Source: Pecten maximus
Taxonomy: Eukaryota
NCBI RefSeq assembly: GCF_902652985.1
Contig: NC_047023.1
Span: forward strand, 3,658,001-3,722,000
Length of the DNA: 64,000 nucleotides
Direction: 5' to 3'
Part shown: piece by piece, positions 2,176 through 63,166 of the stretch
Numbering within the stretch: the first letter of the stretch is position 1
How the letters are laid out: every line of letters begins with the position of its first letter
Notes under the pieces: generated by a model
Told to the model about the DNA's origin: nothing
Database searches by the model: none
Seen by the model: the letters and a program-made list of their open reading frames with translations, nothing else
Made by a program: the position numbers and the translations under genes

Positions 2176-2377
2176 TTGCTGGTATGTTACTTGAGTCACG
2201 CAGTGAGTCAAAATCATGATACCAAAAAATATTATTATTGATTGAAACCAAAATAACTGTGTGTGGTATTATCTAAATCTTATACTAGTAGCCTGTCCAT
2301 GGATCATTTTAGTCCAGTTAAGATTTTCTGATTTAGAGATGTACCTGTTCTATATACTGTATGATTCCCTTGAACAG

Positions 2378-2529
2378 TCTGCAGGTCTGGTGATGGTTCA
2401 CATACACAGTCGTCTAGGCAAAGAGTCGAAGAAAGTAGAAGGCTTTGGCAGCATCATGGCCACTAGTCAGATGTCGGAGAATAACGAGCTGACTCCAGAC
2501 ATGAACTTCTGGCTATATCACGTACAAAG
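2378..2529 (+). CDS. HMGCR: HMGCR exon, membrane domain ([14 protein letters not shown]...FWLYHVQR)
   Basis: gaacag|TCT ... AAG|gtaagt. Resembles vertebrate SLGLVLVHAHSRW. Confidence 0.9.
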
Positions 2530-11500: not shown

Positions 11501-14500
11501 AGAATACTGTAATGATAAAAATCTTTCTGTAAACTATTGAGGTAGCATTGTCTATTTTCCCAGACAAATCTTCCATATCTTTCTCCTTTGTCTACAGTTG
11601 GAGTCAACAAGATTTCAGTTGTTAGCCCACCATCATCAGATGGTGGGCTATTCAAATCGCCCTGCGTCCGTGGTCCGTGGTCCGTCCGTCCGTCCCTCCG
11701 TCCCTCCGTCCGTCCGTCCGTCCCTCCGTCCGTCCGTAAACAATTCTTGTTATCGCTAATCCTCAGAAAGTACTGAAGGGATCTTTCTCAAATTTCATAT
11801 GTGGGTTCCCCTTGGTGCCTAGTTATGCATATTGCATTTTGAGACCAATCGGAAATCAACATGGCCGACAGGCAGCCATCTTGGATTTTGACAATTGAAG
11901 TTTGTTATCGCTATTTCTGAGAAAGTACTGAAGGGATCTTTCTCAAATTTCATATGTAGGCTCCCCTTGGTGCCTAGTTATGCATATTGCATTTTGAAAC
12001 CAATCGGAAAACAACATGGCCGACAGGCAGCCATCTTGGATTTTGACAATTGAAGTTTGTTATCGCTATTTCTGAGAAAGTACTGAAGGGGTCTTTCTCA
12101 AATTTCATATGTAGGCTCCCCTTGGTGCCTAGTTATGCATATTGCATTTTGAGACCAATCGGAAAAACAACATGGCCGACAGGCAGCCATCTTGGATTTT
12201 GACAATTGAAGTTTGTTATCGCTATTTCTGAGAAAGTACTGAAGGGATCTTTCTCAAATTTCATATGTAGGCTCCCCTTGGTGCCTAGTTATGCATATTG
12301 CATTTTGAGACCAATCGGGAAAACAACATGGCCGATAAGGAGCCATCTTGGATTTTGATAATTGAAGTTTGTTATCGCTACTTCTTAGAAAGTACTGAAG
12401 GGATCTTTCTCAAATTTCATATGTAGGCTCCCCTTGGTGCCTAGCTATGCATATTGCATTTTGAGACCAATCGGAAAACAACATGGCCGACAGGCAGCCA
12501 TCTTGGAATTTGATAATTGAAATTTGTTATCGCTATTTCTGAGAAAGTACTGAAGGGATCTTTCTCAAATTTCATATATAGGTTCCCCTTGGTGCCTTGT
12601 TATGTATATTACATTTTGAGACCTATCGGAAAACAACATGGCCGACAGGCAGCCATCTTAGATTTTGACAATTGAAGGTTGTTATCGCTATTTCTCAGAA
12701 AGTACTGAAGGGATCCTTCTCAAGTTTTCGTATTTAGGTCCAATTGAAGTTTGTTATCGCTATTTTACAGAAGGCACTGAAGGGATCTTTCTCAAATTTC
12801 ATATGTAGGTTCCCCTTGGTCCCTGGTGTTGCATTTTGGGACCAATCCGAAAACAACAGACAGCCATTATCGCTAAATCTTAAATTTTATATATAGGTTC
12901 CCCTTGTTTGAAAAGTACTAGAGGGCTGTTTCTGAATTTACACAGATTAGTAAGACTTAGAGGAAGGGAAAAGTAGAGAAAAGATCAATCTGACATGGAA
13001 CCTATAAAGATCATTCAATGGTGGGCGCCAAGATCCCTCTGGGATCTCTTGTTTTTGTTTTGTCGTAGTGTACACAGTTAGCTAGTACAGTGTGTATTGG
13101 ACCAAATTTTGGTATTTCTGTAGTAGGAGTGGGAAAATGTGCATCCAGACCGGGGTTCGAACCCAGGACCTCCAAACACTAGCCTGCTGCGCTACCAATG
13201 GAGCTACCTGGTCGCTGATGATTCCACTACATTTCCTTGCCAGTTTACTAGACATTTAAAGTGAAGAAGCCAACAGTATTCTCATTTTATGGTATCTTCC
13301 ATTTCTAACGAAACCAAGCTGTCTTACAAAAGCTGTATATTATATCATAAACATACAAACCTGATTGACCTGTGTGTTACAGATTCGCCAGACTGAAGAA
13401 GCTACAGGTGGTTCAAGCCAGTCGCTACTTGTACATTCGTTTTGTCGCAACCACAGGAGACGCCATGGGGATGAATATGGTATCCAAGGTATGATACTGT
13501 ATGCTAGTATGATATATGAAATCTGTCTGAACTGACATTCTATGGAAACCAATATATTGGTCCTATTAAACTGTTTAATCTGACACCCTGTGGAAACCAA
13601 TATATTCATCCTATTAAACTGTCTAATCTGACACCCTGTGGAATATAAAATATATTGATCATATTAAACTGTTTAATCTGACACCCTGTGGAAACCAATA
13701 TACTCATCCTATTAAACTGTCTAATCTGACACCCTGTGGAATATAAAATATATTGGTCCTATTAAACTGTTTAATCTGACACCGTGTGGAAACCAATATA
13801 TTCATCCTATTAAACTGTCTAATCTGACACCCTGTGGAATATAAAATATATTGATCATATTAAACTGTCTAATCTGACACGCTGTGGAAACCAATATATT
13901 GGTCATTTTAAACTGTCTAATCCGACACTCGATGGAAACCAATATATATGTCATAGAACTGTTATAGAATAGTTATAACAAAGCCTGCTATTGTTACAGG
14001 GATCAGAGAGAGCCTTAACTACTATATTGGAGCAGTTTCCTGACATGGAGATTTTAAGTCTGAGTGGAAACTTCTGCACTGATAAGAAACCTTCTGCAGT
14101 CAATTGGTCAGTATTACTGTAGGGAGATCACAGATTCTGACTTAACATGATGTTTCGATATGTTTAGTAACATCTAATTTTAATTTTAGAGGTCATCTGT
14201 CTACTGTAAGGGGTCAGAAGTTATCCTGGCTACACTTGACCATTTCTATAAGTGTATAAAATATTTTATTATCCCATCAACATATACGTCCATACCATTC
14301 ATGATAACATCAGTTTTTACATCCGATTTAATTTTGGTGATCGTCACTTAATGGGTCAAAGGTCACACCTGAAGGTAAATCATGTCTTTGTCAAGCCTCT
14401 TCTCACTTTATTTTATAGGTTGGAGGGACGCGGGAAGTCTGTTGTTTCGGAGGCTGTGATCCCGGGGAAAATTGTCAAAACTGTTCTGAAGACGAGTGTG

Positions 14501-17330
14501 GCTGCACTAGTTGACCTAAACATCAGTAAGAACCTGATGGGGTCTGCAATGGCTGGCAGTATCGGGGGATTCAACGCCCACGCAGCTAATGTGGTCACGG
14601 CCATCTTCATTGCTACTGGGCAGGTGAGTGGACTGTTGTCTTTGTTGTGAGAAGTAGGGTAAAAATTTCAGAATCAATACTACAGAATAGGATAAATCTC
14701 TACATTTTTGGGGACTACAGCTGATAACATCTGTATTTGGAAATTATCTTCAACTTATTAATAGTTTCATCAATATCCCCAAGTTTGTTCTATGTTTAGG
14801 GGGTAGTTTTTGTTTCTGCATCATTTGATAATGTTTATAAATATGTTTTCAAATACTCTTTTTGTAATGCAATACTCTACATTTATAAGATCTCAGTATT
14901 TTTATCAGTTCTTTTGGCTAGTAGCTGTTTAGGATTTGCATTTTATGTTAGAAATTATCAACACTGTTCATTTCTTCTTGCTCAAATAAAACTATAATTT
15001 TATGGAGCATTGTATTATCAGTTTTTAAAACAAGAGTTAATCTATATTCACCTAATCAAATAATTAATCTGAAAATTTAATTTAGATTTATAAATCCATC
15101 CACAGATATTTTGTCAGTACAGGAAGGGTTTTATGTACTGCAATCGTGGTTATTTCCACGGGGATTTAATTTTTGCGATTTTGGTGGGTACACTATACAA
15201 GTGGTTATTACCGTGAATTTTTCTTTTTCACCTGTTAAATACCACATACCTCACAAAATAATGTCTGTATGGGAAATTATTTTGGCCAAATGACCTTTTG
15301 CGTATCTAGGGTAAATTTCTCCCTAGCGTAAATTTCCATTTACAGTAATTGATAGACACTAGCCATGTTTGTATAATTCACCTGTCTGATTTGATGTTTC
15401 CCTTTCTTTGTTGTAATGTTGAGCTCCCTTTGTAGGACCCAGCCCAGAACACTACAAGCTCCAACTGTATCACACTGATGGAGCCGACTGGACCTGATGG
15501 TTCTGACTTGTACATTAGCTGTACCATGCCGTCTATAGAAGTGGGCACTATCGGAGGTGGGACCGTACTTCCTCCCCAAGGCGCGTGTCTCCAGGTAATA
15601 TACCAACAGTTTAAGGTTTGTCAACTTCTCAAGTACAATGTGTGTATACACAACTAAACTCTGGTCACAGACATCACTGTAACAGGAACAGTCCTGGTCA
15701 CAGACATCACTGTAACAGGAACAGTCCTGGTCGCAGACATCACTGTAACAGGAAAAGAAATAACTACATGTAAGGTCCATTGGTGAAACCGAGGCCAGGT
15801 CATTTAAATACATTTCTTTTTTTTCCCCCAGATGCTAGGTTTACGAGGATCAGCGGGCAAGGCTGGAGATCGCGCTGGTGAGCTAGCTAGAGTTGTGTGT
15901 GCTACGGTCCTCGCTGGAGAACTGTCGCTAATGTCGGCCCTGGCTGCTGGACATCTCGTTAGAAGTCACCTCCGACACAATAGGTATGTTTACTGAACAC
16001 CTGTCTTATCAAAACAGTGTTTTGGAGTTGAGAAAGTCAAAACAGTTTCATATTCTGAAAAGTTTTATTATAAAATGAAGCTGCTGTTTATAGATGGATG
16101 CATGTTCGAAAATCTTTTATATCATTGCTCTAGCGACTTCATTTTAAACAGATATTGTTTAAGTTTCATTTATATGTCCGTATGAGAATACCTCAAATGA
16201 GTTCATGTTTCAAGGTGCCAAGGTCAAAGTTACCATTACTGCTAATAAAAAATCTGTCAGCACTCTAGTGACTTCATTTCTGAACAGATTTTGATAAAAC
16301 TTTATATAATAGTTAAGTGTGTGAATCATTTGAAAGAGTTCATGTTCAGGGTGCCAATATTAAGGTCAAGGTCACTGTGTGTCTTCATCAGCAGACTTGA
16401 GGACTTCATCATTCAGAATTTTAATCAAACATCAGACATTGGGGATGTCTTTTAAACAGATTTTAACAAACTTTTATACCACTAATGAGTTTGTGGTTCA
16501 GGGTGTCAAGGTCAAAGACAAGGTCACTATTACTTATCATAGAAAATCTTTTGCTAGTCCCCTGGCCATTTCATTTATAACTGGATTTCGATCAAGTATT
16601 TTATATATTGGTCAAGTGTAAGAATACCTTAAACACATTTGTGTTTCAGGATACCAAGGTAAAGGATTTAGCCACTGTTACTATTTTAAGAAATCTTCTC
16701 TTTCTTTTTTCATATCCCTTCGAGCAACTTTATTTTTGAACAGATTTTGGTAATACATTATTAGTCAAGTATGAGAATACCTCTAAGGAGATAGCCATAT
16801 TGTAGGATATTTTGGGGGGTGTACTTGGCATGCGAGGAGATTTGATTACTTGTGATGCCTCGTTTTTGTTTTCAAACATTTTCTGCCACTTTTATATCAG
16901 ACTTGACACTAATATTTTGCTGTATTTTTTCAGGTCCACATTGAATGTAATAGCAGATACCAGTGGGACAAGTATATCTAAAGATTGTAATATAGACTGT
17001 AACAATACTGAACTTATCAACACTAGTCGGTCACGACAAAGTCCTGAAACATGTATATCACACTCAGGGACATCTACGTCAGAAAATACAACCAGGATGT
17101 CGGGGTCCGGGATGTCTGTGTCAGAAACTACAGCCAGGACATCGGGGTCCGGGATGTCTGTGTCAGAAACTACAGCCAGGACGTCGGGGTCAGAAACTAC
17201 AACCAGGACGTCAGAACCAGGGACGTCGGAGTCAGAAACTACAGCCAGGACGTCGGGGTCTGGGACGTCTGTGTCAGAAAATACAACCAGGACGTCAGAA
17301 CCAGGGACATGTATACTGAAGGCCTCATGA
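2378..17330 (+). CDS. HMGCR: 3-hydroxy-3-methylglutaryl-CoA reductase, multi-exon gene (5' exons lie upstream of the window)
   Basis: Spliced translation contains class I HMGR motifs [67 protein letters not shown] and [13 protein letters not shown]. All 13 introns are GT-AG with compatible phases. Confidence 0.97.
2566..2722. repeat. Short intronic minisatellite (~35 bp, gaatgggttgaatgaagtgaaatggctggatgtc-like)
   Basis: 4-5 degenerate tandem copies. Confidence 0.85.
2791..2960 (+). CDS. HMGCR: HMGCR exon, last TM helix and start of linker ([27 protein letters not shown]...STDLP)
   Basis: ttacag|A ... CAG|gtaaat. Resembles vertebrate LLLAVKYIFF. Confidence 0.9.
2932..3120 (+). repeat. 88-bp tandem duplication spanning an HMGCR exon end and donor
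   Basis: tcagatctccagttccacagacttaccag|gtaaatattcctctacc occurs at 2932 and 3020, with a partial third copy at ~3106. Confidence 0.95.
3168..3408 (+). mobile_element. 5'-truncated SINE with a Meta/MESC-like central domain
   Basis: gtataatgtgaccgggtggggtgtg...agcactataaag core, CA-rich segment, and a tail resembling that of the 17690 SINE. Family assignment is from recall. Confidence 0.6.
4756..4994 (+). CDS. HMGCR: HMGCR exon, linker (VPEIPAP...[15 protein letters not shown])
   Basis: ctcag|TT ... GAT|gttagt. Open frame; resembles vertebrate PRPNEECLQIL. Confidence 0.88.
5344..5503. repeat. Long near-perfect palindrome (~75-bp arms)
   Basis: taagcattgaactgctttca...gcaaatt / aatttgcc...tgaaagcagttcaatgctta. 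Confidence 0.92.
5996..6111 (+). CDS. HMGCR: HMGCR exon ([39 protein letters not shown])
   Basis: tacag|GAA ... AAG|gtcagt. Conserved HIPxYKLE motif. Confidence 0.95.
6409..7157 (+). mobile_element. HINE-like non-autonomous Helentron element with ~157-bp internal tandem repeats
   Basis: 5' ttagctcacctggtgagct, cgtc microsatellite, ~3 internal repeats, 3' caggtgagcg plus hairpin aggccc..gggcct and cttgtt; T-rich insertion site. Confidence 0.75.
7234..7312 (+). CDS. HMGCR: HMGCR exon ([26 protein letters not shown])
   Basis: gacag|G ... TTG|gtatgt. Resembles LPYRDYNYSL. Three further identical donors follow downstream (see findings). Confidence 0.9.
7280..7650 (+). repeat. 96-bp tandem repeat (x4) containing an HMGCR exon end and donor
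   Basis: gaattg|gtatgt at 7313, 7409, 7505 and 7601. Confidence 0.96.
8035..8630 (+). mobile_element. Degraded copy of the 155-bp-repeat HINE family
   Basis: aaatggcc..cagccatcttggattttga motifs; ends aaagatcattcaatggtggg like the 11622 element. Confidence 0.65.
8922..9080 (+). CDS. HMGCR: HMGCR exon ([18 protein letters not shown]...[20 protein letters not shown])
   Basis: ttacag|GTG ... GCA|gtgagt. Catalytic Glu motif TTEGCLVAS. Confidence 0.98.
9865..9950 (+). CDS. HMGCR: HMGCR exon ([28 protein letters not shown])
   Basis: ttccccag|CAA ... AG|gtgagt. DGMxRxPVVR motif. Confidence 0.95.
10110..11033 (-). mobile_element. Non-autonomous Tc1/mariner (pogo/Tigger-like) DNA transposon
   Basis: TIRs cagtaaaacacg / cgtgttttactg flanked by TA. 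Internal ORF 10297-10614 resembles the acidic C-terminus of Tigger/pogo transposases. Confidence 0.75.
11411..11482 (+). CDS. HMGCR: HMGCR exon ([24 protein letters not shown])
   Basis: ttacag|C ... AG|gtaatt. Phase 2-2; FDxTSR motif. Confidence 0.93.
11622..13053 (+). mobile_element. Full-length HINE-like element with ~6 copies of a 155-bp repeat
   Basis: 5' hairpin tagcccaccatc..gatggtgggcta, (ccgt)n microsatellite, 155-bp array, 3' tggtgggcg plus hairpin agatccc..gggatct and cttgtt. Confidence 0.85.
13122..13222 (-). mobile_element. tRNA-derived short element (SINE head or tRNA pseudogene)
   Basis: Minus strand carries A box gtagctccattgg and B box gggttcgaaccc; cloverleaf imperfect. Confidence 0.65.
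13383..13488 (+). CDS. HMGCR: HMGCR exon (FARLKKL...[13 protein letters not shown])
   Basis: ttacag|A ... AAG|gtatga. NADPH-binding DAMGMNM motif. Confidence 0.97.
13518..13946. repeat. Intronic minisatellite, 48-49 bp, ~9 copies
   Basis: Unit aaactgtctaatctgacaccctgtggaaaccaatatattggtcctatt. Confidence 0.92.
14000..14106 (+). CDS. HMGCR: HMGCR exon ([36 protein letters not shown])
   Basis: ttacag|GGA ... TG|gtcagt. Cis-loop SGNxCTDKKP. Confidence 0.97.
14419..14623 (+). CDS. HMGCR: HMGCR exon (LEGRGKSVV...[23 protein letters not shown])
   Basis: tttatag|G ... CAG|gtgagt. Confidence 0.98.
15436..15594 (+). CDS. HMGCR: HMGCR exon ([16 protein letters not shown]...[22 protein letters not shown])
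   Basis: ttgtag|GAC ... CAG|gtaata. Catalytic Asp and GTxGGGT motif. Confidence 0.97.
15661..15752. repeat. 33-bp tandem repeat x3
   Basis: Unit ctggtcacagacatcactgtaacaggaacagtc. Confidence 0.9.
15832..15983 (+). CDS. HMGCR: HMGCR exon (MLGLRGS...[25 protein letters not shown])
   Basis: cccccag|ATG ... AG|gtatgt. Catalytic His region. Confidence 0.97.
16934..17330 (+). CDS. HMGCR: HMGCR terminal coding exon with Ser/Thr-rich repeat, ending CILKAS*
   Basis: ttttcag|G completes HNR-S. Open frame to TGA at 17328-17330. Confidence 0.8.
17062..17310 (+). repeat. Coding minisatellite (~42-bp unit, [14 protein letters not shown]) in the HMGCR terminal exon
   Basis: Repeated tcagaaactacagccaggacgtcggggtc, frame preserved. 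Confidence 0.9.
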
Positions 17331-26300: not shown

Positions 26301-27418
26301 AAAAGTCCCATTGGGCCTGTATTGCTCACCTGTTTGTTACATCTTATCCTAATTTCAGGGGATCTAATTCTTCCTTTATTAAGCAATGAATCCTAAGCAC
26401 TAGTTATAATCCATAGTAATTAGGGATATCATCATCTGTTTGTGTGTAGGGCCAGCACCTCGATCATCGTAGGTAAGAACAGGGATCTCCCCATTACGAC
26501 TGAGGGACCCAGCATAGCGAGTACTGGTAATTGTAGATTAAATTGCCTAACTGAGATGCTAACATGGTAATGCCCTGGACATGTTCCTCATCCACCCCTT
26601 GGATGTGTTACAGCATTTATAGGCCCTCATCCATCTCCTGGACGTGTTACAGCATTTATAGGCCCTCATCCACCTCCTGGACGTGTTACAGCGTTTATAA
26701 GCCCTCATCCATCTCCTGGACGTGTTACAGCGTTTATAAGGCCTCATCCACCTCCTGGACGTGTTACAGCGTTTATAAGCCCTCATCCACCTCCTGGACG
26801 TGTTACAGCGTTTATAAGCCCTCATCCACCTCCTGGACGTGTTACAGCGTTTATAAGCCCTCATCCACCTCCTGGACGTGTTACAGAGCGTTTATAAGCC
26901 CTCATCCACCTCCTGGACGTGTTACAGCGTTTATAAGCCCTCATCCACCTCCCGATGTGTTACAGAGCGTTTATAAGCCCTCATCCACCTCCTGGATGTG
27001 TTACAGAACGTTTATAAGCCCTCATCCACCTCCCGATGTGTTACAGCGTTTATGAGTCCTGATGATGTTACATAGTTATTACCATATTTTTCCTTAAGGA
27101 ATCCCCTCCCCTATCTGATGATTCCCCCAAAACGAAGGGGGCTTATTTGTTGGCAGGGCTTATTGAATGATAAATACAGGAAGTTCTTGATAAGTCGTCT
27201 TTTGAAAGCTAAAACCTACCAATATCCTCTTATTTTAACCTTCCCCTGGCATGACAGATCAGCTTATCCTCTCCTTTGAGGATGTGTAACTCGGAACTTG
27301 GTAGAAATCTTATCAGAAACTAATTAGGGGAAAGTATATTTTTAATGAAAAGAATGACAGACAAAAGACACTATGCCATGGATTAGTCTCACCAGTTCTC
27401 ACAAGCAGGTGAGATAAT
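26301..27418 (-). mobile_element. Degraded, inverted HINE-like element enclosing a ~40-bp minisatellite (26585-27058)
   Basis: Left end cccattgggcctgtattgctcacctg is the reverse complement of the 3' end of the 6409 element; right end tctcacc...ggtgaga hairpin. Internal unit gtgttacagcgtttataagccctcatccacctcctggac. Confidence 0.6.
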
Positions 27419-28147
27419 TAATAGGGTGGATGGGGAGGGCTGGGGGTTGGGAGTTGTGAGAAATGTCAAAAATTTAGATCAAGATTTTTTTTAAACAATA
27501 ATATTAAAGTATTTCCGGAAAACAGGCAGTATTGCACAGTTTTGGTCCACATAGACTGTAGGTAAACATACAGTACCAAACGTAACTCCAGCATATCATT
27601 ACTGGTATAACACAGACAGAAATTATAACTAAGCTATTTTCACTGGGTTCATATACCTCAGAACAAAAAAACATACAAATAAAAACCCAGCCAAATGAAA
27701 TGAACTACGTGCCAGCAAGTCTACTTGGGATTGCTGCTCATACAAAAGAACGGAAACTATACCTTTCGAGAGATTGATGTTTATATCAAATTGACAGGAT
27801 TTGTTTGAATACGTAAGGAATGTTATTGCCACAAATATTGTAATTACTACCGATAGTGAAATAGTATTGTGTCCATAAGCAAGTGTTTACCAATAATTTC
27901 ACACTACAGACATTCACATTCCTGTCAATTAAAAGTATTGAATTTCAAATGGCAGAGAAATTATGCAGTGAAAATAGATATTTAATTACCTACGTAATGC
28001 CCTATGCGACAAACATGTGGAGCAATTATCGTTGATTTGAGCTGTTTACAAAATCACTAAACTCTACAGATGTTTGAAAGATCAGCATTAAGGTTCAAGT
28101 GAACATTTTTTTTTAAATTCTGTTTTTTTGGTCATGTCCATACAGAG

Positions 28148-28440
28148 TCACACCATGATTTCATCCTCCTCCCCTATATTCTGAAGTCCTGGGATCGTAA
28201 GGTAACTCGAATCGTACGAAGGAATCCGTCCTTGCCCTACTAAGAACACTGCATCGTAGTTGCCGGGGGATACAGGGTCATTAACACTAGATTCACCTGA
28301 GGCCTCAAGCTCCTGGCTTCCGTAAGAATTTTCTGAATTTCTCCGTCTCTTCACTGCCTCACTATAGCGAGTTGGTGGTCGTCTCGGTGGCAGTGTGGCT
28401 CGCCGCTTGGTCAGATGCTTCAGCTGATTTGGGGGACTGA
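28148..28440 (-). CDS. MYO9A: MYO9 terminal coding exon (VSPPNQLKHLTKRRATLPPRRPPTRY...GEEDEIMV*)
   Basis: ttacacag|TC is a phase-1 acceptor matching the upstream exon. Open to TGA. Confidence 0.85.
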
Positions 28441-31400
28441 CTGTGTAATGATAAAGGAGAGATGTTAGTGTGATGCAGTTGAGGGTGACAAAGAGACAAA
28501 GTCTTGACTTAAACTTTAAATAAGTTCCTCAACGACTAAGCTTAGTTACATGCCCAGCCAACAGGACTATCTTAAATTCTAGGCATGTTATAGACAATCT
28601 GTATCACCAGTGCTCTGCCTCTGAAGATCAAATTCTACAGTAACAACATTATCCAAATTTTCCAAGTTGCCTTGTTCTTTTTCCCCCAATATTATATAAT
28701 ACTAGTATTAAGTTATGAAATGTTAATTTCTTTTTAAACATCAATATTTGAATTAACTCTTAACATTTTCGCTCAATTACTCAACAAATTATTTACACTC
28801 TCAGCACTTCAGTCAGTTAATATGAACTTTAGATGAAATAGTAGTTTGAGGAAAGCTGTAAAGCATAAATTTTACATACACCTGCAAGCAGCTAATGGCA
28901 GACGAAACAAAAAACATTAATGTAGTCATAAGCTTAATATCAGCAGACCAGCATAGAGTTACACATCCTTGACCAATGTAAGTATATCGCAATATAGCTT
29001 TAATGCAATCTGTCCCTGATAAATTTAGCGGCCAATCAGTAATTAGCATATATATATAATTCACCCCGGATCAACTTATCAGCCAATCAGAAATCAACAC
29101 ATAATTCACTCCCTGATTAATGTCTGCCAATCAGCATACAGCTGTTTATCCCTCACCATTTTTGACTGTTAGATCTTATTTTTTGTAAAGCGTAAAAAAC
29201 AAGAGATCCCAGAGGGATCTTGGCGCCCACCATTGAATGATCTTTATAGGTTCCATGTCAGATTGATCTTTTCTATACTTTTCCCTTCCTCTAAGTCTTA
29301 CTAATCTGTGTAAATTCAGAAACAGCCCTCTAGTACTTTTCAAACAAAGGGAACCTATATAACAAATTTAAGATTTAGCGATAATGGCTGTCTGTCGGCC
29401 ATGTTGTTTTCAGATTGGTCCAAAAATGCAATACTAGGGACCAAGGGAAAGCTACATATGAAATTTGAGAAAGATCCTTTCAGCAATTTCTGAGAAATAA
29501 CGATAACAAACTTCAATAGTCAAAATCAAAGATGGCTGCCTCTCGGCCATGTTGTTTTCTGATCGGTCTCAAAATGCAATATGCATAACTAAGCACCAAG
29601 AGGAACCTACATGTGAAATTTGAGAAAGATCCCTTCAGAGCTTTCTGAGAAATAGCGATAACAAACTTCAATTGTCAAAATCCAAGATGGCTGCCTGTCG
29701 GCCATGTTGTTTTCCCATTAGTCTCAAAATGCAATATGCATAACTAGGCACCAAGAGGAACCTACATATGAAATTTGAGGAAGATCCCTTCAGTACTTTC
29801 GGAGAAATAGCGATAACAAACTTCAATTGTCAAAATCCAAGATGGCTGCCTGTCGGCCATGTTGTTTTCTGATTGATCTCAAAATGCAATATGCATAACT
29901 ACGCACCAAAAGGAACCTACATGTGAAATTTGAGAAAGATCCCTTCAGAGCTTTCTGAGAAATAGCGATAACAAACTTCAATTGTCAAAATCCAAGATGG
30001 CTGCCTGTCGGCCATGTTGTTTTCCGATTGGTCTCAAAATGCAATATGCATAACTAGGCACTGCGGGGAACCTACATATGAAATTTGAGAAAGATCCCTT
30101 CAATACTTTCTGAGAAATAGAAATAACAAACTTCAATTGTCAAAATCCAAGATGGCTGCCTGTCGGCCATGTTGTTTTCCGATTGGTCTCAAAATGCAAA
30201 ATGCATAACTAGGCACCGAGGGGAACATACATATGAAATTTGAGAAAGATCCCTTCAGTACTTTCGGAGAAATAGCGATAACAAACTTCAATTGTCAAAA
30301 TCCAAGATGGCTGCCTGTCGGCCATGTTGTTTTGCGATTGGTCTCAAAATGCAATATGCCTAACTAGGCACCAAGAGGAACCTACATGTGAAATTTGAGA
30401 AAGATCCCTTCAATACTTCCTGAGAAATAGCGATAACAAACTTCAATTGTCAAAATCCAAGATGGCTGACTGTCGGCCATGTTGTTTTCCGATTGGTCTC
30501 AAAATGCAAAATGCATAACTAGGCACCGAGGGGAACCTACATATGAAATTTGAGAAAGATCCCTTCAGTACTTTCGGAGAAATAGCGATAACAAACTTCA
30601 ATTGTCAAAATCCAAGATGGCTGCCTGTCGGCCATGTTGTTTTGCGATTGGTCTCAAAATGCAATATGCATAACTAGGCACCGAGAGGAACCTACATGTG
30701 AAATTTGAGAAAGATCCCTTTGGTCCTTTCTGAGAAATAGCGATAACAAACTTCAATTGTCAAAATCCAAGATGGCTGCCTGTCGGCCATGTTGTTTTCC
30801 GATTGGTCTCAAAATGCAATATGCATAACTAGGCACCAAGAGGAACCTACATGTGAAATTTGAGAAAGATCCCTTCAACACTTCCTGAGAAATAGCGATA
30901 ACAAACTTCAATTGTCAAAATCCAAGATGGCTGCCTGTCGGCCATGTTGTTTTCCGATTGGTCTCAAAATGCAATATGCATAACTAGGCACCAAGGGGAA
31001 CCTACATATGAAATTTGAGAAAGATCCCTTCAGTACTTTCTGAGAAATAGCGATAACAAACTTCAATTGTCAAAATCCAAGATGGCTGCCTGTCGGCCAT
31101 GTTGTTTTCCGATTGGTCTCAAAATGCAATATGCATAACTAGGCACCAAGGGGAACCTACATATGAAATTTGAGAAAGATCCCTTCAGTACTTTCTGAGA
31201 AATAGCGATAACAAACTTCAATTGTCAAATCCAAGATGGCTGCCTGTCGGCCATGTTGTTTTCCGATTGGTCTCAAAATGCAATATGCATAACTAGGCAC
31301 CAAGGGGAACCTACATATGAAATTTGAGAAAGATCCCTTCAGTACTTTCTGAGAAATAGCGATAACAAACTTCAATTGTCAAAATCCAAGATGGCTGCCT

Positions 31401-34400
31401 GTCGGCCATGTTGTTTTCCGATTGGTCTCAAAATGCAATATGCATAACTAGGCACCGAGAGGAACCTACATATGAAATTTGAGAAAGATCCCTTCAGTAC
31501 TTTCTGAGAAATAGCGATAACAAACTTCAATTGTCAAAATCCAAGATGGCTGCCTGTCGGCCATGTTGTTTTGCGATTGGTCTCAAAATGCAATATGCAT
31601 AACTAGGCACCGAGAGGAACCTACATGTGAAATTTGAGAAAGATCCCTTCAGTACTTTCTGAGAAATAGCGATAACAAACTTCAATTGTCAAAATCCAAG
31701 ATGGCTGCCTGTCGGCCATGTTGTTTTCCGATTGGTCTCAAAATGCAATATGCATAACTAGGCACCAAGAGGAACATACATATGAAATTTGAGAAAGATC
31801 CCTTCAACACTTCCTGAGAAATAGCGATAACAAACTTCAATTGTCAAAATCCAAGATGGCTGCCTGTCGGCCATGTTGTTTTTCGATTGGTCTCAAAATG
31901 CAATATGCATAACTAGACACCAAGAGGAACATAAAAAAATTAAGAAATACCCAGCATATATATATAGCCCTGTAAAACACTTACGTACGAAAATCTAAAG
32001 TTTTGTATCTGTGAGGTCACACCATAGCATTTAGTTCTACAACATAGCACCCATACTAAATTAATGCCAGTTATCATTACTGACTGTAGCTGTATATAGA
32101 TGATGTAACAGCCATCTTAATTAGCCTTGTCTATATAAATGATAATGCCACCCTGAGTCTGGTGGCTGGATAGAAATTAAAAGTTTGGATTCCAGTTAGG
32201 GCCTAACATATAACAGAGTATGAACAATTCTATACCAACCACGGCTACAATTAAGCTTGGCAGCCCCAATGTCATAAATCTAAATATATTTTTAAATTAC
32301 ATAATAATCATAGATATTTTGTCCAATGTTTACGTAGATATATTTTTTGGACAGGAAATGAATTTCCAGAAATATGTGGCTGATCACAACAGAAAGAAAA
32401 CATTTCACCTGTCAAATTGAACTTAATTATCAAATTGCCATGTTAATGTAAGAAGCCAATTTGAAAAGCTGAGGTCTCCATTTCACACACATGAAAAATT
32501 AGGCTCTAATTATCATAAAACAACTAATCCACAATCAAACACAGAGTGATAGTGTACATCAATCAGTCTGAATATTCTGTTAGAATTGTGCGCTTAACAC
32601 ACAACTCAAGAAGTTGTAGCTTGTTTTATTTTTTTAAGTTTTCACACAATGCAAAGCAGTTAGCTAACTTGTGGTACAGTTGTTTGTACACAGGCATGAA
32701 AATAGATATTGTCATAATTGATGTTCAAATACAAAGAAAAGAGTCTATTAAATCCTTTCGGATGGAAAAACCCTCAATGAAATTCATTCTGCACATTTTA
32801 TACAGAAAACAGAAAACATTCAACATATCAAACACAAAGAAATAGAATCACCTTTGACAGAAGGCTGATGGGTTGTAAACTAATACTGAATGATACAAGG
32901 TAAAACTACGTAGAAACAAGACAAAAAGGTGAACTATTGAAAGTAAGATCTAGTATTAATGAGTTCATGACATAGTGAAAAGAAGATTTGGACAAATTCA
33001 GTGGCCAAGACTGGAATAGACAGGACTAATATACTATTGTAGTACAGTAAAGGAATTATGGCTGGGAGACATCAACAATGAAAAGTCGAAAAAAAGACAT
33101 TTATAACATGCCAATGTACCTCCGGTCAACCCTCAGAGGGTTGTCTCAGCTAGGATTTATACCAAACATGCACAAGGTCAAAGGTCATGACCTTACAGGT
33201 TTCACTGGATATGACCATTGTGTCATGACACTTTATAATATCAACACAATATCACAAACTACATCTATACACCACAATCAGATGTGTACGAAACATGAGG
33301 TATGTACGTATTACAAATCTTTTGTTCAATGGAATCCCTGCTGAATGTGCATCATTTTTTTATGAAACGAAAAATACAGCTTAGGTTATTTTTTTTTTCT
33401 TCTGTAAATGCACAATTCAAAGAAGGTAGGAGTAACATGCTTGCAGGACAAGAGGCTAAGTACAATAGAAATTTTCCTTGAGAAAAAATCTCGTCACAGC
33501 AACAGCAAGATGTCAGTGTGACAAACATACCTTGGTTGTTAATGATCATTTGAAAAAGCTTTTGATTGATTCTGAAAAGCAGTGAATGGTACGCCAACAG
33601 TCAGTATATATAAAGTTTGTATAAAATTTGTGTAAATAATCATAATTGGCTAATTATGACTCACATGTCAACTGGGTCAAGTTTAATAGTTTTAAGAGAC
33701 ATTTTATTTGATTGCAGCCATCCCGGGACAAAATAGATAATTTCAATAAGATCACATTACAATGATCGTGTACAACTAGTACAGATATTGTCTAACAGAT
33801 CAGGACAAACATTACTATTGTTTATTGGCTGTATTAAGGAAGTGAACATTTTCAAATTAATTTAAAACAAAACTCCTGTGTTTTTCCTGGGATAATATGA
33901 CAAGACCATGGAAATGAATAAAAATATGTAAAAATCATGGAAAAATATTGATATTAGCTCCAAATGGCAATTTCCTGAGGGGACAATGAAAATATTCAAT
34001 TAAGGGTGTCATGACAAACTCATTCAACTGTATATACTTAATGACTATTTTTTAATCTGTATGAATTCTTGTACCTAAATTTACTATCATAGTTTTCTTT
34101 CTGTTTCTTTCCCTATTTTCCCCCACTTCTTTATATCCTGACATTTTATTATTTGTTACTTGTTTGTTAAAGCAGATAAGCCAAACACTTGTACATCAAA
34201 GCACACACATATATATATATATTGGTTACAAGGTTAATACCAAGTTATATAAGGTCATAGCTTTTGCAGGTCTACCTTATTACAAGTTAGTAAACAAAGT
34301 GCCATGTTTATACGGCAGTCATGTGTGAACACCACCTGAAGCTGTTGACACTACCTAATTTTCATTTTCTATTTATAGTAACGGTTACAACATTAGCAGG

Positions 34401-37400
34401 TAATAAACTAGGCTACAGTGATGCTAAACTTTCATTAATAAGACTGATATCTTTAATACTTCTTACCAAATTTTCATCTGTATATTTTTGTAACGAAAAA
34501 ATAAAATGAATTTTGAAAGCTACACTTTGTGAAATGTATATTCTTAAAGGACAAAAAGTAAAACAAAAATATTTGTCTTCTGTATGTGATTGTAGACTGA
34601 AGATGTAAAGATGAGGAGAGTATGTTGCGGTGTACAAGCAGTGTAGTGTATAGCAGCATGTACTACCCATTCTCGTCGTCAGATCTTGTATATAGATACA
34701 ACCAAAGCCAATACTTGATTTATGCAGCTATTTCAGTCGCTATTGAGAACAGAACACTGTAAGGCTCAAATATCAAAGATATTTGTTAGAGATGGCTGAC
34801 GTTAACAGAAAGATTGGCTGCAGAAAAAGAACAGGGATATGTAAAATTTTAGTTTTACTTCCATCTTTATAGATCTCTGACAGATTCGAGTGAGATACGA
34901 GTTGGTGTTCAGGTGTAAAGGATCTGGGATAGAATCACACAGCTCTACTGTCTACTCACTAAACTCCCGATAGCTATTGTTTATAAATGATGGAAATTAG
35001 TGAAAATGTTTCAATTTAAGTGTAAATTAACTGTTATCAGAATTTAGCAGAACAGACAGTAGATGTGGTTAGTGTAACCCATAACACTAGCATACTTACT
35101 GGAAAACAGGAAGGCCAAAAACAAAGTGGGAGAAAACATTTAACAGGTGAAACACCCGACCAATACATGGTGCATAGATTGACAGTGTATTTGTGTGTGA
35201 GGGACACATGGTGTATAGATTGACAGTGTATTTGTGTGAGGGACACATTGTGCATAGATTGACAGTGTATGTGTGTGAGTAACATGGTGTATAGATTGAC
35301 AGTGTATGTATGTGTGAGTAACATGGTGTATAGATTGACAGTGTATGTGTGTGTGAGTAACATGGTGCATAGATTGACATTGTATTTGTGTGGGAGTAAC
35401 ATGGTGCATAGATTGACAGTGTATTTGTGTGTGAGGGACACATGGTGTATAGATTGACAGTGTATGTGTGTGTGAGACATGGTGTATAGATTGACAGTGT
35501 ATTTGTGTGTGAGACATGGTGTATAGATTGACAGTGTATGTGTGTGAGTAACATGGTGTATAGATTGACAGTGTATTTGTGTGTGAGACATGGTGTATAG
35601 ATTGACAGTGTATGTGTGTGAGGGACACATGGTGTATAGATTGACAGTGTATTTGTGTGAGGGACACATGGTGTATAGATTGACAGTGTATTTGTGTGAG
35701 GGACACATGGTGTATAGATTGACAGTGTATTTGTGTGAGGGACACATGGTGTATAGATTGACAGTGTATTTGTGTGAGGGACACATGGTGCATATATTGA
35801 CAGTGTATTTGTGTGAGGGACACATTGTGCATAGATTGACAGTGTATGTGTGTGAGTAACATGGTGTATAGATTGACAGTGTATGTGTGTGTGAGTAACA
35901 TGGTGTATAGATTGACAGTGTATGTGTGTGTGAGTAACATGGTGTATAGATTGACAGTGTATTTGTGTGTGAGTAACATGGTGCATAGATTGACAGTGTA
36001 TGTGTGTGAGGGACACATGGTGTATAGAATGATATTTTGTTTACTAAATAGTTGTTTGTACACAACATTTAAAAACCCCGTCACAGTCTTCATGTTAGTA
36101 AATATCTATTTCTAACCTCGCGCCTTTGATCACGTGATGTTCTTGACCAATGGTAATACGTCAGGGGATAGCGCCACCTGCATTCATTTTCAAGCAGCGT
36201 GATTATTTGTAGCAGGGTGCGTTCCCAGTACCTAATTATCATCCTTAACACTTTATCATTGGCACTGTTTCCTTAATTAGACCTCCATCAGAAGGATGTA
36301 GTTCTTGCATCTGTCTCATTCACAGACGCAGAATCTAGTGCTCCTTTAAATACTATCTCACTTTATAGTATTAGGTATGTTTTTCCTCTCTTTTTCAGCT
36401 TTATTCCATACGTGATATAACCTTTCAATCATTTGAACTCTTGTCATTACTTGGTTTATCTGCAAGCTTTATACCAGTTACTGTGCCACTGACCACATTT
36501 AACTTCTTAATGTCTCATTTTAGAGCATATGATAATTATGTGTGTATATATGTAATACGGTGCATTAATTTCTATAGGCAAATTTGTGCTTAGTTGTACT
36601 GATTATAATCAATAATTTTCTAGTTCATCATCGATTCACTTTATCTACACTCTTAAAAATATTACATTGTCATATCCTTCTTGCACATAATTTCTTTCTT
36701 GGGGGCTCTCATTCGGTTACTTTATTGTAACCTCTTCGATTTGGCCTTTTAAATTCGGGGAATTTCTTGCCCCCAATTCATTATATCATATTTTGTGTAT
36801 TTATTTCTTATGTAGATGATATGCTTGGGATCGCCCAAGCTCGGGGGTCGCCCCATCTGAAACAGTCTTAGCAGAACTGCCTGCTTTTTAGCTACCAACT
36901 GCTTACTCTGTGGCTTGAGGTCGCTCAAGCTAGGTTTCTCTCCTCTCTATTAGTCATAGCTAGCTAAGCTATGATCGCTCTAGCTTGGGGGTTGCATGCC
37001 CCTATAGTATAATTAGTATCTTAATTGTTTAGGTGTATCTTTTGAGTAGCGAGTAAAAATTTATTATGTAATATTGTTAGTTGATGTTATTTAGTTGTAA
37101 GAATGAGCAGCCCCTAAGAATGCCAAAACCTTTAGATAATATTTAATATGAGCCTGAACAAGTTATTGGTTCCATTCAATAAATTTTTGACTTTCATACT
37201 GTTTTGGTGTGTTGTGTATAAATTGACAGTGTATGTGTGCGAGTAACATGGTGTATAGATTGACAGTGTATGTGTGTGTGAGTAACATGGTGTATAGATT
37301 GACAGTGTATGTGTGTGTGAGTAACATGGTGTATAGATTGACAGTGTATTTGTGTGTGAGACATGGTGTATAGATTGACAGTGTATGTGTGTGAGTAACA

Positions 37401-40400
37401 TGGTGTATAGATTGACAGTGTATTTGTGTGTGAGTAACATGGTGTATAGATTGACAGTGTATTTGTGTGTGAGACATGGTGTATAGATTGACAGTGTATT
37501 TGTGTGTAAGTAACATGGTGCATAGATTGACAGTGTATTTGTGTGTGAGTAACATGGTGTATAGATTGACAGTGTATTTGTGTGTGAGACATGGTGTATA
37601 TATTGACAGTGTATGTGTGTGAGTAACATGGTGTATAGATTGACAGTGTATTTGTGTGTGACACATGGTGTATAGATTGACAGTGTATTTGTGTGTGAGT
37701 AACATGGTGCATAGATTGACAGTGTATTTGTGTGTAAGTAACATGGTGTATAGATTGACAGTGTATTTGTGTGTGAGTAACATGGTGTATAGATTGACAG
37801 TGTATTTGTGTGTGAGACATGGTGTATAGATTGACAGTGTATTTGTGTGTGAGTAACATGGTGCATAGATTGACAGTGTATTTGTGTGTAAGTAACATGG
37901 TGTATAGATTGACAGTGTATTTGTGTGTGAGTAACATGGTGTATAGATTGACATTGTATTTGTGTGTGAGTAACATGGTGTATAGATTGACAGTGTATTT
38001 GTGTGTGAGACATGGTGTATAGATTGACAGTGTATTTGTGTGTGAGTAACATGGTGTATAGATTGACAGTGTATGTGTGTGTGAGTAACATGGTGTATAG
38101 ATTGACAGTGTATTTGTGTGTGAGACATGGTGTATAGATTGACAGTGTATGTGTGTGAGTAACATGGTGTATAGATTGACAGTGTATTTGTGTGTGAGTA
38201 ACATGGTGTATAGATTGACAGTGTATTTGTGTGAGTAACATGGTGTATAGATTGACAGTGTATGTGTGTGTGAGTAACATGGTGTATAGATTGACAGTGT
38301 AATTGTGTGTGAGACATGGTGTATAGATTGACAGTGTATTTGTGTGTGAGTAACATGGTGTATAGATTGACAGTGTATTTGTGTGAGTAACATGGTGTAT
38401 AGATTGACAGTGTATGTGTGTGTGAGTAACATGGTGTATAGATTGACAGTGTAATTGTGTGTGAGACATGGTGTATAGATTGACAGTGTATTTGTGTGTG
38501 AGTAACATGGTGTATAGATTGACAGTGTATTTGTGTGTGAGTAACATGGTGTATAGATTGACAGTGTATTTGTGTGTGAGTAACATGGTGTATAGATTGA
38601 CAGTGTATGTGTGTGTGAGTAACATGGTGTATAGATTGACAGTGTATTTGTGTGTGAGACATGGTGTATAGATTGACAGTGTATGTGTGTGAGTAACATG
38701 GTGTATAGATTGATATTGTATTTGTGTGAGTAACATGGTGTATAGATTGACAGTGTATGTGTGTGTGAGTAACATGGTGTATAGATTGACAGTGTAATTG
38801 TGTGTGAGACATGGTGTATAGATTGACAGTGTATTTGTGTGTGAGTAACATGGTGTATAGATTGACAGTGTATGTGTGTGAGTAACATGGTGTATAGATT
38901 GACAGTGTATGTGTGTGTGAGTAACATGGTGTATAGATTGACAGTGTATTTGTGTGTGAGTAACATGGTGTATAGATTGACAGTGTATGTGTGTGTGAGT
39001 AACATGGTGTATAGATTGACAGTGTATTTGTGTGTGAGACATGGTGTATAGATTGACAGTGTATGTGTGTGAGTAACATGGTGTATAGATTGATATTGTA
39101 TTTGTGTGTGAGTAACATGGTGTATAGATTGACAGTGTATTTGTGTGTGAGTAACATGGTGTATAGATTGACAGTGTATTTGTGTGTGAGTAACATGGTG
39201 TATAGATTGACAGTGTATGTGTGTGAGGGACACATGGTGCATATATTGACAGTGTATTTGTGTGCGAGTAACATGGTTTATAGATTGACAGTGTATTTGT
39301 GTGTGAGTAACATGGTGTATAGATTGACAGTGTATTTGTGTGTGAGTAACATGGTGTATAGATTGACAGTGTATTTGTGTGTGAGTAACATGGTGTATAG
39401 ATTGACAGTGTATGTGTGTGAGTAACATGGTGTATAGATTGACAGTGTATTTGTGTGTGAGTAACATGGTGTATAGATTGACAGTGTATGTGTGCGAGTA
39501 ACATGGTGTATAGATTGACAGTGTATTTGTGTGGGAGTAACATGGTGTGTTGTTTGACAGTGTATTTGTGTGTGAGTAACATGGTGTATAGATTGACAGT
39601 GTATTTGTGTGTGAGTAACATGGTGTATAGATTGACAGTGTATTTGTGTGTGAGTAACATGGTGTATAGATTGACAGTGTATTTGTGTGGGAGTAACATG
39701 GTGCATAGATTGACATTGTATTTGTGTGGGAGTAACATGGTGCATAGATTGACAGTGTATGTGTGCGAGTAACATGGTGTATAGATTGACAGTGTATGTG
39801 TGCGAGTAACATGGTTTATAGATTGACAGTGTATTTGTGTGTGAGTAACATGGTGTATAGATTGACAGTGTATGTGTGTGGGAGTAACATGGTGTATAGA
39901 TTGACAGTGTATTTGTGTGTGAGACATGGTGTATAGATTGACAGTGTATTTGTGTGAGGGACACATTGTGCATAGATTGACAGTGTATGTGTGTGAGTAA
40001 CATGGTGTATAGATTGACAGTGTATGTGTGTGTGAGTAACATGGTGTATAGATTGACAGTGTATGTGTGTGTGAGTAACATGGTGTATAGATTGACAGTG
40101 TATTTGTGTGTGAGTAACATGGTGCATAGATTGACAGTGTATGTGTGTGAGGGACACATGGTGTATAGATTGACAGTGTATTTGTGTGAGGGACACATGG
40201 TGTATAGATTGACAGTGTATTTGTGTAGGAGTAACATGGTGTATAGATTGACAGTGTATTTGTGTGTGAGACATGGTGTATAGATTGACAGTGTATTTGT
40301 GTGTGAGTAACATGGTGTATAGATTGACAGTGTATTTGTGTGTGAGTAACATGGTGTATAGATTGACAGTGTATTTGTGTGTGAGACATGGTGTATAGAT

Positions 40401-43400
40401 TGACAGTGTATTTGTGTGTGACACATGGTGTTGTTTGACAGTGTATGTGTTAGAGACACATGGTGTGTTGTTTGACAGTGTATGTGTTAGAGACACATGG
40501 TGTGTTGTTTGACAGTGTATGTGTTAGAGACACATGGTGTGTTGTTTGACAGTGTATGTGTGTGTGAGACACATGGTGTGTTGTTTGACAGTGTATGTGT
40601 TAGAGACACATGGTGTGTTGTTTGACAGTGTATGTGTTAGAGACACATGGTGTGTTGTTTGACAGTGTATGTGTGAGAGACACATGGTGTGTTGTTTGAC
40701 AGTGTATGTGTGTGCGAGACACATGGTGTGTTGTTTGACAGTGTATGTGTGTGAGAGACACATGGTGTGTTGTTTGACAGTGTATGTGTTAGAGACACAT
40801 GGTGTTGTTTGACAGTGTATGTGTTAGAGACACATGGTGTGTTGTTTGTGTATGTGTGACATATATATTATCAATATGTTTGATATAAACATGTTCTGCT
40901 GTGAAGTCATTCTATCTGGTTGATTTCAAACTGCTCATCAACAGTAACTATATCATTATATTCCTAGCTATAATTTATGTTCCCCTTATTTTCTAATCAG
41001 ATCATTAGCCAATTCCTGAATCATAATTCTCACCAAAGGATATCAAAGTGTTATTCAAAACTTCAAAATCCTAAATATTATGCCTCCAAAGGACATTTAA
41101 TATCCTCTACAAACTAAAAAGCTTAATTGTTCCCATTATTTTCTGTTACTAGGTTACCATGGCTGATTAAACAGCAATAAGCTGAAGCAACGACATAAAC
41201 AGTGTATGTTGAAAGTTTACAACACTTAAATCAAACTTCAGTATAAATCAAGGCCCCGCCTCCTCAAACAAATGTCCATTCAGACTTTACCCTCCTTCAA
41301 AAAATTCACTGCCAAAAAGATTCTGTTTTGATTGAAAATTAATTCTAAAAAAAAAAATCAAGTTCTGGGAAACATCAATATATTAACATTATCTTTAGTT
41401 TATTCCCAATTACAATGAATTTGAAATCATAAGAAAAACTGATAATGGGAAAGTAAAACTGTCTTTCAGTTTTTATCATGAAATTGACCATGATATTATA
41501 ACAAACATAATTTTTTATTTTGATATTTGATTAATGATATTATAACAAACTAAGGCAAAGACAAATTTTGAAGGAAACTGACAACTGAACTAGAATTTGT
41601 TGAAGAAAACAGTGCCAGGTAGAAACACTTCTATTTGTTCAGGTTAAGAGTTCAATAGACCATCGAATCACACTTCATCCTTTACACACACAAACACACA
41701 TGCTACATTTGTGATCATCATATAGCCTCTGTCCTGTGTCAGGAAACGAAGAAAGAGATTGGTTTACCTGGGAGTTCAAAGGTCAGAGCATACTCCTCCT
41801 GATCTTCAAAGTCATCAGCTGTATCGTATGTACTGTCCATGTCATCCGTACTTAGAACCTCGTCATCAGAACTCAGGTGACGACATTCCAAATTTGGTAA
41901 ATTGGACGTAAGGTTATCTCTGCAAACGAGTAATCAGTCGCTATATAACTGTGAACATGAGGACTGATCGAGTTGATGTTGTGAACTGTCAAAGTTTGAC
42001 AGAGGATATAATACAAATTCTGGGTAAAATTGTCTATATCTAGCATGGCTGGCTATGAGGATACAGTAAAATCAAAATGATGGTATATATAAAGTACATC
42101 TTTATGTAAAATGATGGTACATAAAAAGCACATATTTATGCACGTACAGTCAAACTTCATTATCTTGAACTCTGAACTCGAAGGGTGTGCTTATATACAA
42201 ATTCTTTTTAAGATATACTCGTCTTCCTCAGGATATCTCAAAGATTTTTTCGTGACCCCACTGACTTATTAAGATAAAATATAATTAATGATCTTAGGTT
42301 CCATTGTATACAGGAGAGACAAAAATTGTTAATGTGATTTTGATGTTGATACCCACTTTTCCTTTTTGATGGATCGAATGTGTGAGCGAAGTGCCATCTC
42401 CTCGGCGTGTGTCATCCCGTCGAGGGACTCGGTACTGGTCACGGAGGCTCCAGACACTCGCTTCTTCTCTTCTATTGGACTCTGTAGGAAGGTCATAACC
42501 ATCAGTTTTATTTTCTAAGTCAGATTAACTTTTGTTAAAATAGTCCGATATCTTATTATGTGGGTTACAATGTAATTTTTGAATGTTGTTATTTTTCACA
42601 TATTAATTGGAAGAAAGAAGACATTCAGCTGTATGCACAGATTGGTCATTGATAAATTCATCTTCTGTCTTTTATTACTAACCCTGACCAAACAGAGACA
42701 GTCTATAGGCCTACCTTCCTCATGCTGGCCCTGACAACATTGAGCCGGTCTGTAGCCGTCTCCGCGGCAGTTTCCAGTGTACTGATGTCTTCCAGTGTGG
42801 ATTTCAACTTATACAACTGTTCTTGTATGATATGGTTGATCACCCTACACAGAGAAACCCAGAATTCTTATTTAGTCAATTCTAACAACACATGATTATA
42901 AATCTTTTGATACAAACTTATGACAATGGAATTAAACAAAACATTATCTTTTGTTCTGAAGACACAGGCAAAAAACAAAACAGGGTAATCACAAAGATGA
43001 AAGTAGAATCTTATTTTGCCAAATTGAATAAAAATTGGAATTTTTATAAAATGCAAAAGGAATGTGTATAGTTAATGCAAAATTGTTCTTACTTGGTCTG
43101 CCTTGGAACCTGACTAAGGGAGTCTTGTGCTTGTAGGTTTTTGCTTGTCCGCAGGAGACATGGGGCAAATATAATGGACAGTCCGGAAACAGACATTTTA
43201 TTGAAGGCCTCGTGGTGAGCCACCCTGTAAAACAGTCAACATATTCATGTTAACAAGCTGGGAACTGTAAATTTTTTGTTTTAAGAAAGTCATGTCCAAG
43301 CTAGAGTTTTATAACTTTCTGTAGTCTCACTGTTACAGTATATAAGTCCTATGTCTGCACAGTTACAGGTATCAGACGTCATAAAAACTATCTAAATCAC

Positions 43401-62629: not shown

Positions 62630-63166
62630 TCTATCTCTCTCTATATATATCTGATCTCCATAGTAACAGTTATCTCTATCTCTCTCTATATATATCTGAT
62701 CTCCATAGTAACAGTTATCTCTATCTCTCTCTATATATATCTGATCTCCATAGTAACAGTAATCTCTATCTCTCTCTATATATATCTGATCTCCATAGTA
62801 ACAGTTATCTCTATCTCTCTCTATATATATCTGATCTCCATAGTAACAGTTATCTCTATCTCTCTCTATATATATCTGATCTCCATAGTAACAGTTATCT
62901 CTATCTCTCTCTATATATATCTGATCTCCATCGTAACAGTAATCTCTATCTCTCTCTATATATATCTGATCTCCATCGTAACAGTAATCTCTATCTCTCT
63001 ATATATATATCTGACCTCCATAGTAACAGTAATCTCTATCTCTCTCTATATATATCTGATCTCCATAGTAACAGTTATCTCTATCTCTCTCTATATATAT
63101 CTGATCTCCATAGTAACAGTTATCTCTATCTCTCTCTATATATATCTGATCTCCATAGTAACAGTA
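62630..63166. repeat. 45-bp minisatellite, 12 copies
   Basis: Unit tctctatctctctctatatatatctgatctccatagtaacagtta. Confidence 0.96.

Follow-up and report, generated by a model that had tools for sequence, protein, structure and literature searches.

A candidate capping protein interaction motif in the tail of a scallop class IX myosin

The stretch of DNA analyzed here, hereafter the window, comprises 64,000 nucleotides of the scallop Pecten maximus (contig NC_047023.1, positions 3,658,001 to 3,722,000, forward strand); all coordinates below are positions in the window. Its minus strand carries exons for the tail of a class IX myosin, the last of which encodes a stretch resembling the capping protein interaction (CPI) motif. 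The features are as follows, in the direction of transcription.

52378 to 63838, minus strand: further myosin IX tail exons, from homolog alignment
about 51590 to 51694 and 51122 to 51196, minus strand: two C1-domain exons, from homolog alignment, with a C1_1 match
about 46430 to 46615, 46050 to 46190, 44468 to 44578, and 43093 to 43224, minus strand: four RhoGAP exons, Pfam PF00620
42715 to 42844 and 42357 to 42481, minus strand: two exons of the tail that follow those of the RhoGAP domain, from RNA contigs and homolog alignment
41768 to 41919, minus strand: penultimate exon, with the end of a second coiled-coil-like stretch, an acidic patch, and a conserved segment directly before the motif
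28441 to 41767, minus strand: last intron, 13.3 kb, GT..AG, containing 155-base and 39-base tandem arrays
28148 to 28440, minus strand: protein-coding portion of the final myosin IX exon, with 2 bases ending a split codon, 96 codons, and the stop codon at 28148 to 28150
28367 to 28423, minus strand: CPI-like motif of 19 residues, with Leu1, His3, Thr5, Arg8, Arg14-Arg15, and Pro17 as in CD2AP and Ala9-Thr10 in place of Pro-Lys
28364 to 28366, minus strand: Tyr three residues after the closing Pro (Pro+3), at the place of CD2AP Phe505 and within the predicted interface
28151 to 28159, minus strand: hydrophobic C-terminal end after an acidic run, an end shared by 20 of 49 myosin IX tails
27300 to 28147, minus strand: 3' untranslated region, at least this far, with unbroken cover by spliced contigs X1, X2, and X8

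The host gene is a full class IX myosin, with head, IQ neck, C1, and RhoGAP domains on one strand. Beyond the window, the minus strand has 20 tblastn matches, collinear with the protein, to residues 4 to 1088 of the Tegillarca myosin IX (P0002), and these matches span the N-terminus, head, and neck. Within the window, the tail exons are mostly 78 to 100% identical to a Mizuhopecten myosin IXb-like protein. The C1_1 match falls on one exon (E of 3.6e-04) and is below the cut-off because the domain is split over exons.

Several other features share the window. An HMG-CoA reductase gene, of which three exons match PF00368, occupies about 2200 to 16900 on the plus strand and lies tail to tail with myosin IX. 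The introns of the myosin hold tandem arrays at 29384 to 31930 (155 bases, 16.5 copies), 35165 to 36032 (39 bases, 22.5 copies), 37214 to 40824 (39 bases, 94.6 copies), and 44579 to 45840 (36 bases, 35.3 copies). An intronic element at 43636 to 44100, flanked by 25-base tandem arrays, is covered to a depth of about 40,000 in RNA run X1, versus 34 for the exons. It contains a long hairpin, its matches to miRNA families all stay below threshold, and it is likely a high-copy non-autonomous mobile element.

In which frame is the last exon read? The frame with the motif is open from 28528 down to the stop at 28148 on the minus strand, and another frame over the motif is open from 28362 to 28508, so the frame had to be taken from splicing. 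RNA contigs from three of four runs (X8, X1, and X2, belonging to three studies) match 27300 to 28443 and then run on in the exon whose end is at 41768; in the fourth run, X7, the contig stops at 28440. The last intron (41767 to 28441, minus strand) runs from GT to AG over about 13.3 kb in phase 1, which keeps the motif in frame and rules out the alternative frame. In all four runs, of which X1 and X15 appear to be the same data set, RNA contigs join the four upstream introns back to a RhoGAP exon. In X1 and X8, these contigs match in length and depth those that cover the last exon, and the positions continue from one to the other, which points to a single transcript piece from the RhoGAP domain to the last exon. 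Alignment of the last exon with the abalone tail extends through the final residue (E of 3.4e-10). The motif is thus coding and stands behind the C1-RhoGAP module of a class IX myosin. The original prediction had assigned the peptide to the last exon of a myosin IX; the 19 codons from 28423 to 28367 translate to that same peptide, and the splicing and the linkage to the RhoGAP exons agree with the assignment. It had also stated that the open reading frame track misses the motif, and with common start codons the frame indeed begins at 28354, downstream of it.

Two bivalve database models, P0001 and P0002, end a few residues past the penultimate exon (window 41748 to 41768) and do not include the motif exon. 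These ends resemble intron read-through, and reading on into the intron of the window gives a similar end. The lack of the last exon in both models may be one reason that the motif went unnoticed. The intron behind the donor at 41768 has no RNA contig cover in the four runs; because contigs prove presence and not absence, a short isoform without the motif may exist as well.

We scored CPI likeness over the seven fixed positions of the published consensus LxHxTxxRPK(x)6P (PMC5491179), accepting the closing Pro at position 17 or 18. The scallop motif scores 5 of 7, with Leu1, His3, Thr5, Arg8, and the closing Pro in register, and, as had been noted from the sequence at the outset, Ala-Thr replaces Pro9-Lys10 of the strict consensus. 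Shuffles of the last exon reached at least 5 of 7 in 36 of 20,000 cases. The six frames of the window hold 42,600 stop-free 19-mers, of which a single one, the scallop motif, reached that score. A phmmer search of the PDB with a 34-residue peptide from the window returned nothing at E up to 10. Thr10 lies next to the core Arg in an Arg-Arg-x-Thr context (28394 to 28405, minus strand) that is not common to most aligned tails; we take this to be a candidate site for a basophilic kinase, through which binding might be switched.

Conservation was examined with the C1-RhoGAP-tail region of P0002 as the query, which does not include the motif. From the best 150 matches, 56 rows had the second coiled coil plus acidic anchor; seven with tails shorter than 40 residues were dropped, and 49 were scored. 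Names were looked up for 30 of the best 150 matches. Nine of the 49 tails reach at least 5 of 7, all of them 24 to 45 residues past the anchor (shuffle P of ≤0.01), and 13 reach at least 4 of 7. The nine are from abalone (Haliotis), scorpion (Centruroides), mite (Dinothrombium), amphioxus (Branchiostoma), two nematodes (C. elegans HUM-7 and Mesorhabditis), Capsaspora, and two further rows. Besides these nine, a sponge, Oscarella, carries the motif. Plakobranchus and Strongylocentrotus score 4 of 7 at the same place. Outside the anchored tails, at least 5 of 7 is reached at 3 of 135,092 positions of the 150 proteins, and two of these three are the same tail motif in rows that the anchor missed (P0184 and P0201). 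The motif of Capsaspora myosin IXA scores 6 of 7 and has Pro-Lys at positions 9 and 10, a pair also present in the P0201 tail, and HUM-7 has Tyr in place of His3. The Capsaspora and sponge proteins possess head, IQ, C1, and RhoGAP domains. With these two carriers, the motif appears to be much older than had first been proposed.

The remaining 40 tails score below 5 of 7. None of 13 vertebrate-clade tails, none of 10 tails in the clade with the insects Ischnura, Diaphorina, and Hermetia, and none of 3 malacostracan tails (the Homarus-Meganyctiphanes clade) reach 5 of 7, and neither do those of Owenia, one Lineus isoform, and Antedon. Rows were grouped with a tree of 126 rows, built by a quick method with many open forks and used for this grouping only. 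Conservation in other lophotrochozoans had been proposed as a check on the motif, and the outcome is divided among the four named tails: Haliotis (5 of 7) and Plakobranchus (4 of 7) keep it, and Owenia and the one Lineus isoform do not. A stretch in snake Myo9a (4 of 7, offset 78, shuffle P of 0.074) and one in Ischnura (4 of 7, shuffle P of 0.126) were considered as motifs and not counted. Possible traces of a decayed motif occur in these two (P0204 and P0132), in Antedon (P0137), and in P0136 (a row of the insect clade), none of them significant against shuffles.

Fifteen tails, the scallop and 14 others, were aligned. Leu1 is kept in 15 of 15, Arg8 and the last Pro in 14 each, and His3 in 13, and the flanks diverge. 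Lys10 is present in 3 of the 15 and Pro9 in 5. Two features outside the scoring are also frequent, two basic residues before the last Pro (13 of 15) and an aromatic residue at Pro+3 (9 of 15). When 10 tails were picked by the upstream segment alone, 6 reached at least 5 of 7 and 8 at least 4 of 7, with a pattern that was written after the tails had been seen. By these comparisons, the motif is conserved in position and patchy in distribution, with entire clades lacking it. The simplest reading is that an ancestral holozoan motif was lost several times.

The extreme C terminus follows a different distribution. The same two final residues as in the scallop close 20 of the 49 tails, among them tails of insects, of crustaceans, and of vertebrate Myo9a in which the CPI-like motif is absent. 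We take this end to resemble a PDZ ligand, and we found no literature title on such an end in myosin IX.

A profile of the 15 aligned tails was searched against 177,635 PDB sequences. It matched 11 of them at E up to 10, and every one is a CPI chain; this result is biased toward CPI by the choice of profile rows for their CPI-like look. The matches are CD2AP (1.7e-05 and 5.1e-05), CKIP-1 (1.7e-04), six CARMIL1 chains (five peptides and 9ec0_A; best 1.6e-03), a CD2AP-twinfilin chimera, and 9bli_C; PDB 9bli is a RavB-CapZ entry (PMC12865202). A Pfam scan had been suggested as a further check. For the exon and the window peptide, it returned no CPI-related family and no CARMIL_C; among the 15 tails, 4 match CARMIL_C, with a best E of 0.0023. 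The ELM paper names a CPI class, LIG_ActinCP_CPI_1, with 15 instances (PMC8728146).

How does the motif compare with known CPI proteins? The best profile matches are to the CD2AP/CIN85 CPI (PDB 3AA6 and 3LK4), with which the scallop motif shares the spacing from Leu1 to Arg14-Arg15 and Pro17 and the aromatic residue at Pro+3. In CD2AP, this residue is Phe505, three past Pro502, which docks in an N-stalk pocket formed by beta-subunit Ile29, Cys36, and Leu40, and flanking contacts of this kind raise affinity for capping protein (PMC2897767). The scallop motif differs from CD2AP in its Ala-Thr versus Pro9-Lys10 and in its host, a motor with a RhoGAP domain versus an SH3 adaptor. CKIP-1 (PLEKHO1; PDB 3AA1) has Ala at position 9, as in the scallop, and is identical to it at positions 14 to 19, but keeps Lys10, has a linker one residue longer, and contacts membranes through a PH domain. 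RavB binds with L(X)6R(X)6RRLP and no Pro-Lys pair (PMC12865202). Ala9 of CKIP-1 and the missing pair of RavB indicate that the strict Pro-Lys form is not general to binders. They explain half of the Ala-Thr departure; the loss of Lys10 is a real departure, common to 12 of the 15 tails.

The capping protein-binding region of CARMIL, which combines CPI with a CSI motif, is likewise represented by its six chains and the weak CARMIL_C matches. CARMIL has a PH-LRR-HD architecture plus CSI, whereas the scallop host is a myosin, and by eye the scallop last exon contains no CSI consensus. Dictyostelium CARMIL links capping protein to a myosin (PMC2150732); this link to myosin I is indirect, through SH3 domains, whereas the scallop motif is on the motor chain itself. 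A vertebrate complex of SH3BP1, CD2AP, JACOP, and CapZ also brings a Rho-family GAP and capping protein together at sites of membrane remodeling (PMC3514035), but there the two activities are on separate proteins, and in the scallop the GAP, the motor, and the putative CPI form one polypeptide. The order of head, IQ, C1, and RhoGAP is that of the class IX myosins Myo9a, Myo9b, and HUM-7, from which the scallop protein differs in that the scored vertebrate tails have no CPI-like motif.

We modeled a 44-residue peptide from the window with capping protein, using scallop alpha (P0287) and a beta subunit from another scallop (P0005), with alignments not used. The stand-in P0005 is 92 to 100% identical per exon to the beta subunit of this genome, and all 11 published CPI contact residues of beta (PMC2897767 and PMC4598739) are conserved in it. 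An alpha-subunit exon of this genome is 100% identical to a protein labeled Pecten maximus. The beta exons occur twice in the genome (G000:C3090 and G000:C16:17.26 Mb), on a chromosome-size and a small contig, probably as a duplicated haplotype. The three predictions scored 0.84, 0.86, and 0.84, versus 0.33 for the best of three controls; since CPI-capping protein complexes have already been solved, these scores may reflect memory and speak for likeness rather than for binding. Two controls with unrelated partners scored 0.02 and 0.00. In a microbial calibration, 51 of 78 solved pairs and 2 of 108 mismatched ones came up to the mark for such scores; in a eukaryote calibration, 71 of 105 and 2 of 126 did. 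Both calibrations were made up of pairs without peptides. The runs share at least 84% of contacts, with a partner pLDDT of at least 62.

Confident contacts cover peptide residues 6 to 25 (Leu1 to the Tyr) plus 28, 29, 31, and 32, and they fall on the beta subunit except for two alpha residues, as in crystal structures (PMC2897767). The interface includes 6 of the 11 published beta contact residues (29, 36, 40, 41, 44, and 67); the other five (R15, D30, D63, Y64, and Y79) are missing from the confident set. The model places the motif along the same beta groove in which CD2AP, CKIP-1, and CARMIL bind; Arg8 would be the core contact, and the Tyr would add affinity. Together with the coding frame, the conserved position, and the CPI-only profile matches, this prediction at the CPI site argues for the CPI-like reading of the peptide with which the analysis began, and we consider it probable, from sequence comparison and modeling, that the motif is an ancient CPI of the CD2AP type by which myosin IX binds the stalk of capping protein directly.

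We weighed this reading against three others. The scallop copy may be a weak or dispensable relic of a true CPI, with poor binding and little effect in cells. The replacement of Pro9-Lys10 would fit such a relic, as would loss or decay in many lineages, evidenced by the 40 tails below 5 of 7 and the partial traces in Ischnura, Antedon, and P0136. The CPI consensus alone binds at micromolar strength in CARMIL (PMC2897767), and a bare consensus of this kind would accord with weak binding here. Yet the core residues Leu1, His3, Arg8, and the last Pro are kept where the flanks diverge, the scallop retains the affinity-raising aromatic residue at Pro+3, and RavB binds with just L(X)6R(X)6RRLP. We regard a relic as unlikely.

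A second possibility is that the motif is a conserved basic, Pro-rich site for another partner, such as acidic lipids, F-actin, an SH3 or WW domain, importin, or the acidic patch or head of the myosin itself, and that the CPI likeness is incidental. Arg, Lys, and Pro are abundant in the stretch, which stands about 30 residues after the acidic patch, and Thr10 is in what we take to be a kinase-type context (Arg-Arg-x-Thr). But a charge patch needs no fixed spacing of Leu1, His3, Thr5, and Pro17, the profile found CPI chains only, and the two unrelated-partner controls scored close to zero. Inspection by eye found no exact RxxPxxP or PxxPxR pattern in the motif. Another partner seems to us distinctly improbable. 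That the likeness is a matter of chance, or that the stretch is not translated in the motif frame, is largely refuted and very improbable: short motifs do arise by chance and P0001 and P0002 lack the exon, but the spliced contigs of three runs fix the frame, the exon aligns to the end of the abalone tail, the score is seldom attained by shuffles, and other tails have the motif at the same place.

If the motif is a CPI that binds the capping protein stalk, known properties of CPI motifs and of myosin IX suggest how it might act. Myosin IX, as a plus-end-directed motor, would bring capping protein to barbed ends near membranes or activate it there. Binding of the motif would loosen capping and free capping protein from V-1, and the RhoGAP domain would switch Rho off at the same spot. 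Rho is linked to formins, and its shutoff there would damp formin-type elongation. A single chain would in this way couple Rho shutoff to the control of filament ends. We hold this full delivery model tentatively, at somewhat less than an even chance. The broader history is for us comparably uncertain, and we would not yet bet on it: a motorized regulator of capping protein, carrying its own CPI and switching Rho off, may have arisen before animals and been lost separately in vertebrates, insects, and malacostracans.

Our full-text search found no published CPI motif in a class IX myosin; supplements, subscription papers, and the ELM instance list may hold a mention. Myosin IX is not named in the available text of 10.1101/2020.02.06.936211, PMC10881157, and PMC8728146. 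The word "capping" does not occur in a HUM-7 preprint, and in the available text of PMC11569205, the mention of HUM-7 together with capping protein is a reference-list entry. C. elegans hum-7 mutants have extra actin protrusions, which have so far been attributed to Rho (HUM-7 preprint).

Capping protein needs a partner with a CPI motif for its localization and function in cells (PMC4598739). The few partners known so far are adaptors, and a RhoGAP motor that moves toward plus ends and bears a CPI would extend them by a family; judged by sequence and predicted structure, myosin IX is likely such a new family of capping protein binders. Because the scored relatives of human Myo9a and Myo9b do not have the motif, the medical reach would be small. 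If the reading is true, a CPI would for the first time be built into a motor, and into a RhoGAP, as judged by the CPI families of the papers cited here, and Rho shutoff, motility, and control of filament ends would be joined in one chain, at a date before the animals.
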